A stretch of DNA of 64,000 nucleotides from an uncultured archaeon (GTDB lineage Archaea > Asgardarchaeota > Thorarchaeia > Thorarchaeales > Thorarchaeaceae). The stretch's first letter is position 1. The number at the start of each line of letters is the position of its first letter. The translations under genes and the position numbers were made by a program. The stretch covers positions 52,531-116,530 of the forward strand of contig CAZSWP010000002.1 of the NCBI GenBank assembly GCA_964610875.1, given 5' to 3'. The notes under the pieces were generated by a model. That model ran no database searches. It had not been told where the DNA came from and worked only from the letters and a program-made list of their open reading frames with translations. Shown here piece by piece: positions 20,334-36,757 of this stretch.

Positions 20334-21551
20334 ATGGCAGAGGCATTCTCAAAGCCTTCACGTAGAATAAGAAATATGGTTGCAAAAGAACTTAGATTGA
20401 TAGTCAAGGATAAAGTAGCCATATTACTGATTTTCCTCTTGCCAGCAGTCTTAATTGGAATGCTCTGGTGGGTTATGAATCAGAACGATATGGGTGGGAT
20501 GGGTCCCGGTTCATCAGATGTTGAAGATGTAGATGATGTCGATGTAGAAGACATCGATGATATCAATCCCGAGAATGCAACGGATGATTTCAGTTCGGAT
20601 ATAGTTCTCGGATTGATTGATTTAGATTCCACCCGTACGTATGATGGAGCAGACCTGTCGGAGAATTTCACTAATTATTTGAAAAATTTTGTGAAAGAGC
20701 TCATAATATATAACAATACAGATGATGCTTGGCAGGACCTCTATGAAGAAGAGATAGCGGGATATGTTGTAATTCCTGATGGATTTGAAGCGAACCTTAC
20801 AATAAATGAACCGACTTACGTTGAAGTGCATGTTGACGCGACCGATTTCTTGGCTGAATCACAGATTCAAGGAGTAGTCACAGGAGCCACTATTCTATTT
20901 AGAGCATCAAAACTTTGGATTAGGTCTGAGGTATTTCCATCTCTAAGTATTGAATTCGTACCGGAGGGTGGTGGATTCTATGAAGCCTCATTTGGGGGTT
21001 TCATTGTAGTATTCTCCAGCTATCTTGGAATTGCTATGACGGCTGCACAATCAATCGTAGGGGATACACCTCTTAGGAGAATGCTCTTGACACCTACGAA
21101 TAGACTTGAGGTCATTGTAGCCAAAGTACTAGGATATGTAGTTATAGGATTCTTCCAATCACTGTTACTTGTGACTCTCTGGGTACTTGCGTTTGATCTA
21201 AATTTGAATACAGGATTTGAGAGCTTAGTTATTATTATGAGCTTGACAGCACTTACAGGTTCTGCAACAGGAATACTAATTTCATCTGTGGCGAGTACAC
21301 GGTTACAAGCTAACCAGATGTTTTTGTTTGTTCTTTTTGCGACAGTGATTCTCTCTGGGTTCTTTGTCGATGTAGGAGCTATAGATGAAGTCCTTCCATT
21401 GAATCAAGGACTCAAGATATTAATAGATACGGCATTCAAGGGTCTTACATTGGTTGAAGTCTGGTTCCCTGTAATGAAGTTGCTAGGATTCTCACTAATT
21501 TCAATTCTATTGGCCACATTCATCTTCTCGAAGAAACCAACACTAGGTTAG
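20334..21551 (+). CDS. ABC-2 type exporter permease
   Basis: KELRLIVKD, TM1 plus large extracellular loop (LIDLD...VVIPDGF), LRRMLLTP.NRLEVIVAK, C-terminal TM bundle. Confidence 0.9.
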   Translation: MAEAFSKPSRRIRNMVAKELRLIVKDKVAILLIFLLPAVLIGMLWWVMNQNDMGGMGPGSSDVEDVDDVDVEDIDDINPENATDDFSSDIVLGLIDLDSTRTYDGADLSENFTNYLKNFVKELIIYNNTDDAWQDLYEEEIAGYVVIPDGFEANLTINEPTYVEVHVDATDFLAESQIQGVVTGATILFRASKLWIRSEVFPSLSIEFVPEGGGFYEASFGGFIVVFSSYLGIAMTAAQSIVGDTPLRRMLLTPTNRLEVIVAKVLGYVVIGFFQSLLLVTLWVLAFDLNLNTGFESLVIIMSLTALTGSATGILISSVASTRLQANQMFLFVLFATVILSGFFVDVGAIDEVLPLNQGLKILIDTAFKGLTLVEVWFPVMKLLGFSLISILLATFIFSKKPTLG

Positions 21552-21560
21552 GTGAAGGAT

Positions 21561-23246
21561 ATGACACAAAAGACTGAAAGTGAAACTACAACTACCGAAC
21601 GTCCATCCTTTGTGGAGGAAGCATATTACTCTGGAAATAGGGTTGGAGAGGCAATTGATTGGTGTCTAACACGACACGATAGAGAATTACACTGTGAGAT
21701 AGATGGTGTACTGACAGAAACCAAAGAGGAAGTCAAATTCAAGGGACGGATTCTCTCAGTAAAGAAGGGTGTCATATCCAGAAAACTGGCGATACTTGTT
21801 GAAGAGGACCTACGAAAAAAGAAGAAGGGAGACCTAGATATCGTACTTACGGTTGGTGGTAGAGACACACGACAAGAAGATGTAGCAGCCAGTCAAATAA
21901 CTATACAGAACTACTTGAAACGAGATATGTCAGACGACCTCTATTTTGATGGAAGAGAACTACAACAGGCAGCAAAAGACATTGCCAAGATGCGACACAA
22001 CAATCAAATTGCGTGTACTGTATGGGGAAAACGTGCATCTGACAATCGACCGATAATGATCACGGGTACAATCGTAGGTTCTAGTATTAGATTGCTTGAA
22101 CCAATACTACCAGAGGGATTCCTTGAAATCAGGGTAGAACCGGAGGATTCGGTAGGAGACTCGAAGATATTCACTGTAGCACAACCACAGTTGTTAATTG
22201 GGCCGCGAACTGACCCGAATCTAACGATAATTGCTGAGAAAGTATATGTTCAACCTTCTTCATGGATAGAAGCACCTGAATATAGGGATGTCTTGGAATG
22301 CAGAAATCTTACTGTAGCTTTGAAGAGTGGAAAGAAACTGATTGAGAATGTATCATTATCAATTAAGGAAGGCGAGATGTTAGCCATCATTGGGGAATCA
22401 GGTGCAGGTAAGTCAACAACAATCAAAGCACTCATAGGAGACATTCCAAGTACCGGTGTTGCGCGAATTGCAGGAATTGATTCAAGAAATGCCCAAAAAG
22501 TACGATATTTCTTTGGATATTGTCCACAAGATTTGTCATACATGTATGACACATTTACACCATTAGAAAATATCATTGCATTTGGAAAACAATATGACAT
22601 TCCAGAGTGGCAACTGATTCAGGAAGGCAAGACACTTCTTCGCGACTTTGGCATTTTAGAAAAAGGAAATAATCCAACAAAGGAACTAAGTGGTGGACAA
22701 CAACGTAGAGTGTCAATTGCTATAGCGTTAGTACATAGACCAAAAGTTCTGCTAATGGATGAACCCACTTCAGGTCTCGATCCGGATAATCGTAATGAGT
22801 TGTGGCATTTTCTTGACTATGTAAACAACGAATATGGTACCTCGATGGTGGTAATTACACACTACCCCATTGAAGCAGAATTTTGCGATAAAGTGGCAGT
22901 GTTTCTACGAGGCAAAAGTCTAGTTGCATTTGGGGCACCTGCAAAACTAAAGGAGTCCATGCCATCGAGAGGGTTCTCAGTTGCTGTGGTCTTGGAAGAT
23001 GTAGACCCTCGTGCTCTAAAAGCGCTAGAGAAGGTTGAGGGAGTTTCATTCGTTCTACAACGAGGAGAATTACTGAAAGTGTTCACAGAGGAACCCCTTG
23101 AACTCATTGCTGAACGATGTGTGACAACCCTGAACGAGAACGATATTCCTGTGAAAATTGTAAAAACCAAGGCAATTGCAGATATGGTAGATTACTATGT
23201 GGCCATTACTCGTGGGCTGATATCGGGTACGATTGAGCAATCATAG
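21561..23246 (+). CDS. ABC ATP-binding protein with ~240-aa N-terminal extension (TrmB C-terminal-like repeats)
   Basis: GESGAGKS, LSGGQQRR, LLMDEP, ITH; extension contains LTVGGRDTRQEDVAA. Confidence 0.88.
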   Translation: MTQKTESETTTTERPSFVEEAYYSGNRVGEAIDWCLTRHDRELHCEIDGVLTETKEEVKFKGRILSVKKGVISRKLAILVEEDLRKKKKGDLDIVLTVGGRDTRQEDVAASQITIQNYLKRDMSDDLYFDGRELQQAAKDIAKMRHNNQIACTVWGKRASDNRPIMITGTIVGSSIRLLEPILPEGFLEIRVEPEDSVGDSKIFTVAQPQLLIGPRTDPNLTIIAEKVYVQPSSWIEAPEYRDVLECRNLTVALKSGKKLIENVSLSIKEGEMLAIIGESGAGKSTTIKALIGDIPSTGVARIAGIDSRNAQKVRYFFGYCPQDLSYMYDTFTPLENIIAFGKQYDIPEWQLIQEGKTLLRDFGILEKGNNPTKELSGGQQRRVSIAIALVHRPKVLLMDEPTSGLDPDNRNELWHFLDYVNNEYGTSMVVITHYPIEAEFCDKVAVFLRGKSLVAFGAPAKLKESMPSRGFSVAVVLEDVDPRALKALEKVEGVSFVLQRGELLKVFTEEPLELIAERCVTTLNENDIPVKIVKTKAIADMVDYYVAITRGLISGTIEQS

Positions 23247-35379: not shown

Positions 35380-35455
35380 GTAACTCAGATGTGTCATCAT
35401 AGAATACTCCTAGGGAGTAATTATGTGAAATTCTCATGAATAAAAAGACATTTTT

Positions 35456-36757
35456 ATGAGGAGTCTGACCATAACAACAGATACGAGTAGGGAGCAAAAG
35501 GAGTTGGAGAATCAGGACCTCCTAGCCACCATTGGACGTCAATTAGACGAACTAGAAGTTTCAACAGAGATTCAACCTGAAGAGGTCAAACCACTTACAG
35601 TGCCATCAAAAGCGCGACGTGAATTGGATAATTTAGAGATAGAGCTCAAAGAAACCCTCAGAACCTTCTCTGACGACGTGCGACTTCCAATCCTATTGCT
35701 TCGTATTGCAAATCTACATCTCAGAGAGGCAAAGTTTAGCAAAGCAATCCTAGCTTATGAGCTGTGTCTGAATGTGTATAGTGAGAACATCATTGCATGG
35801 ATTCAGATGGGACTTGCATATTATCTTGGTGGAGAATATGAAGATGCAATCAAATGTTTCAATTCTGCACTCGGATTGGAAGATAAAAATACGGATGCAT
35901 TGGTCTATAGAGGACTCTCACGTCTGAAGCTTAACAAACCTGATGCTGCGAAGAAAGATTTTGAGAGAGCACTCGCTCTTGAAAAGAGTAAACCAAGAGC
36001 ACTCTTGGGCATGGGACTCTATTTCAAGGAGATAGGACACTTGCAAAGTGCCTTAGTCTGGATGACCAGGGCCCACAATGTAGATGTCGCAAGAATCGCA
36101 CCCTATCTAGAACTTGGAAGACTGCATATTGAAATGGAACAACTAGATCTAGCTCAGGAGGTCTTAGAGAAAGGTCTGACGATTAGAAAGGAGCAGCCAT
36201 ACATCCTCGCATCTCTAGGCAACGTCTTTATTGAGAAAGGAGACCTGAAAAAGGCACTGGAGTACTATACACAAGCTGCGAGTATCAAATTCGATGATCC
36301 TGAGATATGGATAAAGAAAGGAGATATTCATCGAAAACAGAAGTCACTAGAAGAGGCATTGACATCTTATGAGAAAGCGATTCATGCTAATCCCGAACAT
36401 ATAGACGGTTGGATACGAAGTGGACAAGTTGTGACGATGCAGGGAGACGATGACCTTGCATTGGAGTATTATAATACTGCACTTGCCTTGAAACCTGAGA
36501 GAGCGGATGCAGGTTTCCTCAGAGGTCTGATTTATCTCAAAAGAGAGCAGTACGAAGATGCAATTTCTGATTTTGACGATGCTTTCGCTCATGAGTCTGA
36601 TAACCCGGAGTATCTCTATCATAGGGGCATTGCATTAGAGAAACTGGGGAGAAAGGATGAAGCTAAACGAACATATCAGATAGCAAGGTTTCTATTCGAG
36701 GAGAACAACAATTCTAATAGAGCTGCAGAATGTAGTGCTAGGATTCGACGACTATAG
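35456..36757 (+). CDS. Tetratricopeptide repeat protein
   Basis: About 10 canonical TPRs (AW..MG.AY...G.YE.AI..F..AL). Confidence 0.9.
   Translation: MRSLTITTDTSREQKELENQDLLATIGRQLDELEVSTEIQPEEVKPLTVPSKARRELDNLEIELKETLRTFSDDVRLPILLLRIANLHLREAKFSKAILAYELCLNVYSENIIAWIQMGLAYYLGGEYEDAIKCFNSALGLEDKNTDALVYRGLSRLKLNKPDAAKKDFERALALEKSKPRALLGMGLYFKEIGHLQSALVWMTRAHNVDVARIAPYLELGRLHIEMEQLDLAQEVLEKGLTIRKEQPYILASLGNVFIEKGDLKKALEYYTQAASIKFDDPEIWIKKGDIHRKQKSLEEALTSYEKAIHANPEHIDGWIRSGQVVTMQGDDDLALEYYNTALALKPERADAGFLRGLIYLKREQYEDAISDFDDAFAHESDNPEYLYHRGIALEKLGRKDEAKRTYQIARFLFEENNNSNRAAECSARIRRL

Follow-up and report, generated by a model that had tools for sequence, protein, structure and literature searches.

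The stretch of DNA considered here, a window of 64,000 nucleotides on contig CAZSWP010000002.1 from an uncultured archaeon of the family Thorarchaeaceae (Asgardarchaeota), contains six co-directional genes on the plus strand at positions 20334-36757. Four of these encode an ABC-2 permease (ABC, ATP-binding cassette), two different ABC ATPases and a large single-pass membrane protein in which an inactive subtilase (S8) domain stands ahead of a GIFT domain; we refer to it as the S8-GIFT protein. The four genes are linked in three classes of Asgard archaea, in two gene orders, and of 30 Asgard families sampled, the same six have both ATPase 1 and the S8-GIFT protein. Because the linkage survives rearrangement and the genes are co-distributed, these results argue that the permease, the two ATPases and the S8-GIFT protein are a functional unit. 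We lean, by a modest degree, toward the view that this unit is an envelope machine in which an exporter works with a glycan-handling ectodomain partner. The GIFT domain is otherwise best known from the eukaryotic proteins OST48, site-1 protease (S1P) and IFT52, and here an ABC-2 engine is tied to a protein whose C-terminal half is OST48-like and whose GIFT domain has its closest structural counterparts in IFT52 and S1P.

Gene order across the Asgard archaea

The six genes follow one another at distances of 0, 18, 2, -4 and 76 nucleotides. The ABC-2 (type V) permease (20334..21551), recognised by Pfam ABC2_membrane_3 and by hydropathy, is followed by ATPase 1 (21552..23246; Pfam and motifs), which has a TrmB-C-like N-terminal domain in front of its ABC_tran domain. 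The S8-GIFT protein, a type-I membrane protein of 1459 residues (23265..27644; Pfam and alignment), comes third and ATPase 2, with canonical motifs, comes fourth (27647..28624; Pfam, NCBIfam and the starts of its orthologues). The last two genes encode a giant type-I membrane protein of 2252 residues with a propeller and TSP3 repeats (28621..35379; Pfam and motif counts) and a cytoplasmic TPR protein (35456..36757; Pfam TPR families). As judged from hydropathy, the S8-GIFT protein and the giant protein each have a signal-like N-terminus, a single C-terminal transmembrane (TM) helix and a cytoplasmic tail, which is 78 residues long in the former and 125 residues long in the latter. A preliminary description of the window had listed a permease, two ATPases, two single-pass proteins and a TPR protein, with the first five genes overlapping or less than 20 nucleotides apart. 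All six genes are present on the plus strand, and the first four distances agree with that account.

The conservation of these genes was followed in 301 Asgard genomes sampled across 30 families (coded f1 to f30), and gene orders were read by tblastn of the window proteins on the retrieved loci. The six genes occur in the same order in nine genomes of the same family and in one of the same order, that is, in 10 of the 10 loci examined from the Thorarchaeota order, which is far above chance. In about nine loci from the Hermodarchaeia, the permease, ATPase 1, S8-GIFT and ATPase 2 genes are contiguous, and there is no giant protein. In five loci from the Jordarchaeia/Freyarchaeia, the S8-GIFT gene is adjacent to, and divergent from, the genes for ATPase 1, the permease and ATPase 2, in that order. 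The preliminary description had named neighbourhood conservation across Asgard genomes as the check on its proposal, and for these four genes the linkage is indeed found in the Thorarchaeia, the Hermodarchaeia and the Jordarchaeia/Freyarchaeia.

The N-terminal domain of ATPase 1 is present in 73 of the 76 genomes of f1, 17 of the 19 genomes of f12 and every genome sampled from f2 (1/1), f7 (5/5), f19 (6/6) and f30 (1/1). The other 24 families gave no full-length match to it; in f21 there are weak matches to standalone proteins of 158-166 residues. The six families with this N-terminal domain are also those that have full-length S8-GIFT orthologues, and elsewhere there are only generic GIFT matches. 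Present in 73-74 of the 76 genomes sampled from the family, the gene set is among the most conserved envelope sets of the Thorarchaeia.

One could suppose that the genes are mere neighbours, an ordinary multidrug-type ABC-2 pump having come to lie beside unrelated surface proteins. The ATPases are annotated in the sources as 'ABC-type multidrug transport'. In addition, the ABC trio of f7 and f30 is together or close while the S8-GIFT gene is on another contig, and the other GIFT proteins of the window's genome are not beside ABC genes. However, the gaps of 0, 18, 2 and -4 nucleotides indicate tight translational coupling, the linkage survives rearrangement across three classes and the six families with ATPase 1 are those with the S8-GIFT protein. 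A chance neighbourhood is therefore, in our opinion, very improbable.

The S8-GIFT protein

The N-terminal part of the S8-GIFT protein (23428..24668, plus strand) consists of an I9-like propeptide (residues ~55-145) and an inactive S8 domain (residues ~148-468). Pfam gives Peptidase_S8 at 1.7e-37, as well as an IFT52_GIFT match further along the protein, and the propeptide and S8 domain are best aligned by profile to pro-Tk-SP of Thermococcus (3afg residues 28-418, E 6e-76). In the window copy, the Asp and His of the catalytic triad are kept, the nucleophile Ser is replaced by Ala and the oxyanion Asn by Asp. Among 124 full-length members of the S8-GIFT family, the oxyanion site is Asp in all 124, and the nucleophile position is occupied by Thr in 60, Ala in 56, Ser in seven and Phe in one; the triad Asp is retained in 118 and the triad His in 114. 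The protein had been called a pseudo-protease in the preliminary description, and this tally bears it out; judged by its residues, the subtilase is catalytically dead. Self-removal of the propeptide would take an active subtilase, and so here it probably remains in the cleft. The S8-GIFT protein would be a clean natural case of a subtilase turned into a binding module.

The same genome encodes an S8+GIFT paralogue of 970 residues (L049:8917-11829, minus strand, contig C21), which has the domain pair of eukaryotic S1P and sits among two further large S8 genes with no ABC neighbours. Its DTG, HGT, AAGN and GTSA motifs are intact, and so it is apparently catalytically active. As the paralogue keeps the catalytic set, the loss is specific to the copy in the operon.

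Sequence searches of Pfam and the PDB with the middle region of the S8-GIFT protein gave no match, and the fold search alone was informative. In an AlphaFold2 model (pLDDT 80) examined with VIA and Foldseek, the first part of this region (24714..25481) is a beta-supersandwich of the type that forms the N-domain of GH15, GH94 and GH116 enzymes, here with no catalytic barrel. It resembles the N-domains of glucodextranase, glucoamylase and GH94/GH116 enzymes; against 1ug9, the VIA Z score is 21.7 and the root mean square deviation (rmsd) is 2.9 Å, with 230 residues aligned. Two Ig-like beta-sandwich domains (25497..26189) are placed behind it with lower confidence from the secondary structure of the model, and two orthologues give weak CARDB matches in this region.

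The first strand of the GIFT domain itself (26205..26990) leads into a variable loop rich in Gly and Asp, and the domain is recognised by profile, Pfam and VIA. A profile of residues 965-1362, built from 13 orthologues, matches the solved structures of IFT52 (5fms, 1.5e-12) and S1P (8uw8 residues 657-727, 1.7e-3). Pfam finds IFT52_GIFT in 13 of the 13 orthologues, ABC_transp_aux (the GldG family) and DUF4350 in 12 each and MBTPS1_4th in six. The C-terminal AlphaFold2 model (pLDDT 77) superimposes on IFT52 with a VIA Z of 22.8 and an rmsd of 2.1 Å over 195 residues and on residues 617-874 of S1P (9csd_A) with a Z of 19.4 and an rmsd of 3.0 Å. With a Z of about 19 to OST48 as well, the GIFT assignment of the preliminary description is well founded. 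Behind the GIFT domain are a macroglobulin-type Ig domain (26991..27302; VIA Z 11.8 to the MG domains of complement C5) and, as seen from hydropathy and alignment, a TM helix (27351-27407) with a helical cytoplasmic tail that ends in GGV (27351..27641 together). The tail is conserved (family alignment columns 1500-1593). The family is a narrow one, as a query with the last 500 residues retrieved only 25 clusters among 1.84 billion representatives. Nearly all close homologues come from sources labelled 'Candidatus Thorarchaeota'.

Both surface proteins are rich in N-x-S/T sequons. The S8-GIFT ectodomain (23343-27350) has 27, compared with 11.4 ± 2.6 expected from its composition, and the ectodomain of the giant protein (28693-34944) has 37, compared with 24.4 ± 4.0 expected. 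This excess suggests heavy N-glycosylation of both ectodomains.

The S8-GIFT protein shares with S1P (MBTPS1/SKI-1) the order of an S8 domain, a GIFT-type GATase-like domain, a TM helix and a cytoplasmic tail. It differs from S1P in that the catalytic Ser and the oxyanion Asn are gone, and S1P is not encoded in an operon with an ABC transporter. The S8 domain has its best matches among Tk-SP and the subtilisins, S1P being absent among the 60 matches listed. The middle region gave no Pfam match to the second or third domain of MBTPS1, and for the supersandwich and Ig domains, which fill the approximately 500 residues from S8 to GIFT, no S1P counterpart was found. Orthology with S1P was consequently dropped, the S8 domain being nearest to Tk-SP and the middle domains having no S1P match. 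As far as it could be tested, the resemblance is confined to the layout of S8, GIFT and TM helix.

The likeness to OST48/Wbp1 lies in the last 480 residues, in which a GIFT domain is followed by a beta-sandwich, one TM helix and a short tail. OST48 is the top Foldseek match of the C-terminal part (6s7t_G, E 3e-13, 382 columns). GIFT plus Ig align with both luminal domains of OST48/Wbp1 at VIA Z 18-19 over about 300 residues; the rmsd of about 14 Å arises because the domains are differently oriented. Unlike in OST48, the GIFT module is fused behind a pseudo-protease, and its gene is not linked to AglB/STT3. We considered a connection with the oligosaccharyltransferase and dropped it, since the STT3 genes are on other contigs. 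Among the Asgard archaea, homologues of WBP1 have been reported only in the Heimdallarchaeia (Eme et al. 2023, PMC10307638).

These likenesses raise the question of descent. The eukaryotic GIFT proteins OST48/Wbp1 and S1P, and perhaps IFT52, might have descended from Asgard subtilase-GIFT partners of an ABC-2 exporter, and the presence in the same genome of a paralogue with the S1P domain pair is relevant here. If this were true, the operon would retain the prokaryotic setting in which a module worked before eukaryotes put it to use in the glycosylation machinery of the endoplasmic reticulum and the protease machinery of the Golgi. We regard such a descent as a long shot.

The transporter and a possible mechanism

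The permease matches Pfam ABC2_membrane_3 at 8e-29 and has six hydrophobic spans by hydropathy, with an extracellular loop of 170 residues, including an acidic insert, between TM1 and TM2. The orthologues begin with MAE..., which agrees better with an ATG start at 20334 than with the TTG at 20325. Among solved chains, the permease is nearest to the insect ABCH transporter 'ABCG23-like' (9ju6, E 4e-11).

The N-terminal ~250 residues of ATPase 1 (21552-22300) form a tandem TrmB-C-like beta-barrel domain (Pfam Regulator_TrmB, 1.8e-11), for which the protein atlas search returned no usable match. Behind it is a canonical nucleotide-binding domain (NBD; ABC_tran, 1e-27), with readable Walker A and B, Q-loop, LSGGQ and H-loop motifs, and then a C-terminal extension. 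The suggestion that the system is regulated by sugar has a thin basis, as it would depend on a single feature, the likeness of this barrel to the C-terminal subdomain of TrmB.

ATPase 2 belongs to the drrA subfamily of NCBIfam (5.6e-54), and its motifs are canonical. Its reading frame is open from 27626 and has no ATG, GTG or TTG before 27893, which corresponds to profile position 62. The CTG at 27647, 2 nucleotides past the stop of the S8-GIFT gene and preceded by a GGGAGG motif, aligns with the TTG or ATG starts of the orthologues, and another genome (L019) also has CTG here. The probable start of ATPase 2 is therefore this CTG, with coupling to the S8-GIFT stop codon. The usual gene callers would begin the protein at the GTG at 27893, and the Walker A motif would be lost. 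The two ATPases, different as they are, both appear to be competent, and with a six-TM ABC-2 permease and NBDs that have every canonical motif, the system has the make-up of the ABC-2/type V exporters.

The closest known system is GldA/GldF/GldG of Flavobacterium and other Bacteroidota, along with the generic 'ABC-type uncharacterized transport system' that has an ABC_transp_aux (GldG-like) partner. In both cases, an ABC-2-class permease and a DrrA/GldA-class ATPase are genetically coupled to a membrane-anchored extracytoplasmic GIFT protein. The Gld analogy drawn in the preliminary description stands at this level of domain classes and fails at the level of equivalogs. The GldA model (TIGR03522) has a cut-off of 402.6 bits, and ATPase 1 and ATPase 2 reach 97.3 and 131.6 bits, respectively; the permease gave no GldF model in the NCBIfam scan at E <= 0.01. 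The GldG-type family ABC_transp_aux (PF09822), found in 12 of the 13 orthologues with a best value of 2.2e-11, scores 14.2 bits in the window copy, which is under the cut-off, and so this likeness too is at the domain level only. The Asgard system differs from GldAFG in its ABC2_membrane_3 permease, its two different ATPases, one of which has a TrmB-like N-domain, and its archaeal host. The GIFT protein is three times longer than GldG and has a dead subtilase, a supersandwich and Ig domains. ABC linkage was also considered as a general property of the GIFT proteins of this genome, and this was rejected: a GldG-like protein of 405 residues and the 970-residue S8+GIFT paralogue have no ABC neighbours.

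The Wzm/Wzt exporters of O-antigen offer a second comparison. They consist of an ABC-2 permease and an ATPase with a beta-rich cytoplasmic domain that recognises carbohydrate. Unlike in Wzt, the extra domain of ATPase 1 lies at the N-terminus and resembles TrmB instead of being a C-terminal carbohydrate-binding module, there are two ATPases and the operon has no glycosyltransferase genes.

As indicated above, we favour an exporter with a glycan-handling partner. The permease, of the ABC-2 (type V exporter-like) kind, would be powered by the two different ATPases and work with the single-pass S8-GIFT protein at the cell surface. The ectodomain of the latter would be a chain of binding modules, namely, the uncleavable propeptide with the dead subtilase, the supersandwich, the Ig domains and the OST48-like GIFT plus Ig. 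The transporter would move a lipid- or glycan-type component of the envelope outward; its TrmB-like barrels may recognise or sense the substrate in the cytoplasm, much as the carbohydrate-binding domain of Wzt does. Outside, the GIFT ectodomain partner would receive, hold or present the substrate, as GldG is thought to do for GldF. In the Thorarchaeota order, a Ca-binding stalk protein of fixed length and a TPR protein would have been added as clients or partners. The gene content, the inactive catalytic site, the folds, the kept linkage and the co-distribution are shown here; that the proteins form a complex, the class of substrate and the direction of transport are all points that we infer. 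We favour export and handling on the outside because of the ABCH-like permease, the carbohydrate-associated supersandwich and GIFT modules and the barrels, which resemble the part of TrmB that binds its effector, and we count the sequon excess of the S8-GIFT ectodomain toward the same glycan theme. GIFT domains have been proposed to bind sugar (PMC7226087).

Several points weigh against this interpretation. Supersandwich and GIFT folds, here taken from models, do not prove glycan binding, and the matches to STT3/AglB are on contigs C32 and C89, away from the operon. Outside Pfam, the likeness of the ATPase 1 N-domain to TrmB is weak (PDB profile E 0.13). One permease gene to two ATPase genes is an unusual stoichiometry. 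The separation of the S8-GIFT gene from the ABC trio in f7 and f30, described above, counts here as well, and, as relatives are not independent, the six families may represent only a few clades or events.

A different role for the same proteins would be mechanotransmission or signalling. The ATPases might drive changes in the ectodomain, as in FtsEX or MacB, or the dead subtilase might be a ligand receptor like CspC, with the conserved tail reporting inward to the ATPases, the TPR protein or a small GTPase. The clostridial pseudoproteases CspC and CspA are likewise subtilase folds without catalytic residues that serve as binding or receptor modules; unlike the S8-GIFT protein, they are soluble proteins of the spore that lack a GIFT domain and are not linked to a transporter, and the NCBIfam matches to CspC and CspBA are weak (9e-9). 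Retention of the triad Asp and His in most of the family suggests that the binding cleft is retained, and the S8-GIFT tail ending in GGV is conserved. In eight Hermodarchaeia loci, the next gene after the operon encodes a Ras-family GTPase, and TPR neighbours occur in the Thorarchaeota order and in f7. However, ABC-2 permeases are classically exporters, mechanotransmitters use permeases of the FtsX/MacB type and the GTPase and TPR neighbours are each confined to one lineage. Taking the mechanical and receptor versions together, we consider this role unlikely, though it deserves to be kept in mind.

If the exporter and its GIFT partner do form a complex, the complex would provide a testable prokaryotic role for GIFT domains, which have no clear function as yet, even in GldG and OST48. 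The four-protein set is a defined, expressible target for the biochemistry of surface assembly in Asgard archaea. We found no description of the four-gene system in the literature on GIFT/GldG or on Asgard site-1 protease, OST48 and integrin/thrombospondin.

The giant protein and other neighbouring genes

The giant protein begins with an FG-GAP/BBS7-like beta-propeller (residues ~25-400) and also has TSP3_bac repeats (333 bits), with about 75 Ca-binding TSP3 motifs of the form DxDxD. In ten orthologues its length is 2197-2292 residues, and they are collinear from end to end; therefore, the repeats are individually conserved rather than a fluid array. A TM helix (34945-35001) leads to the cytoplasmic tail, a beta-sandwich of 125 residues (35002-35376) that is the best-conserved part of the protein. 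Orthologues of the tail are found in 60 of the 76 genomes of f1 and in f2, and there are none in f7 (0/5), f12 (0/19), f19 (0/6) or f30 (0/1). An orthologue of the TPR protein is directly downstream in seven loci and about 5 kb downstream in two more; the f12 and f19 genomes tested gave none at 1e-20. Together with the TPR protein, the giant protein is thus an addition specific to the Thorarchaeota order.

These results bear on the proposal, made in the preliminary description, that a Gld-like ABC/GIFT complex assembles, positions or signals through a giant Ca-repeat adhesin. Within the Thorarchaeota order, the giant gene is always present, there is a 4-nucleotide overlap between its start and the end of the ATPase 2 gene, and the near-fixed length and strongly conserved tail of its product would also fit such a machine. 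The protein scores 395.7 bits against the gliding adhesin CglD of NCBIfam (NF033765). However, this is under the cut-off of 400 and is spread over 15 repeat stretches, so that the TSP3 repeats drive the score. Moreover, the Hermodarchaeia and the Jordarchaeia/Freyarchaeia keep the four-gene core without orthologues of the giant or TPR proteins. An adhesin-centred machine is accordingly not sustained and seems to us rather improbable; with a core that exists without it and a repeat-driven CglD score, the adhesin can be no more than a lineage-specific client.

The tail of the giant protein displays some other resemblances. By language-model features, its nearest named clusters are the appendage domains of adaptin and COPI (scores 0.82-0.88), which is a lead only. 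Weak homologues of the tail are also present in 60 of the 68 genomes of f9 (E 1e-6 to 1e-7 per genome; e.g., L039:2158-4527), where their hosts are proteins of about 790 residues with five PCI/winged-helix repeats and a Vps28 C-terminal domain.

The genes around the core differ among lineages. In the Hermodarchaeia, the core is followed by genes for the Ras-family GTPase (Pfam Ras, 6e-48) and an aminotransferase in all eight loci that reach that far (L026:10848-11372, minus strand, and L109-L122). Several of the Hermodarchaeia loci have a second Ras-like gene about 7 kb upstream of the core. In f7, the S8-GIFT gene is convergent with a TPR gene of 275 codons (L028:7423-8250, minus strand), and this is followed by a gene of about 1045 codons with an MIT domain match (L028:8889-12026, minus strand).

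On the other side of the operon in the window is an open reading frame of 801 codons (17700-20105, minus strand), divergent from the operon and separated from it by an intergenic region of 219 nucleotides. Its product has no sequence match in Pfam or the PDB, and its N-terminal part is found at the same upstream place in at least six Thorarchaeota loci at 29-40% identity. Farther upstream (15130-16725) are a protein of 298 residues with a weak longin-domain match (Fuz_longin_1, 1e-3) and, beside it, a TPR protein of 227 residues that ends in a zinc ribbon.

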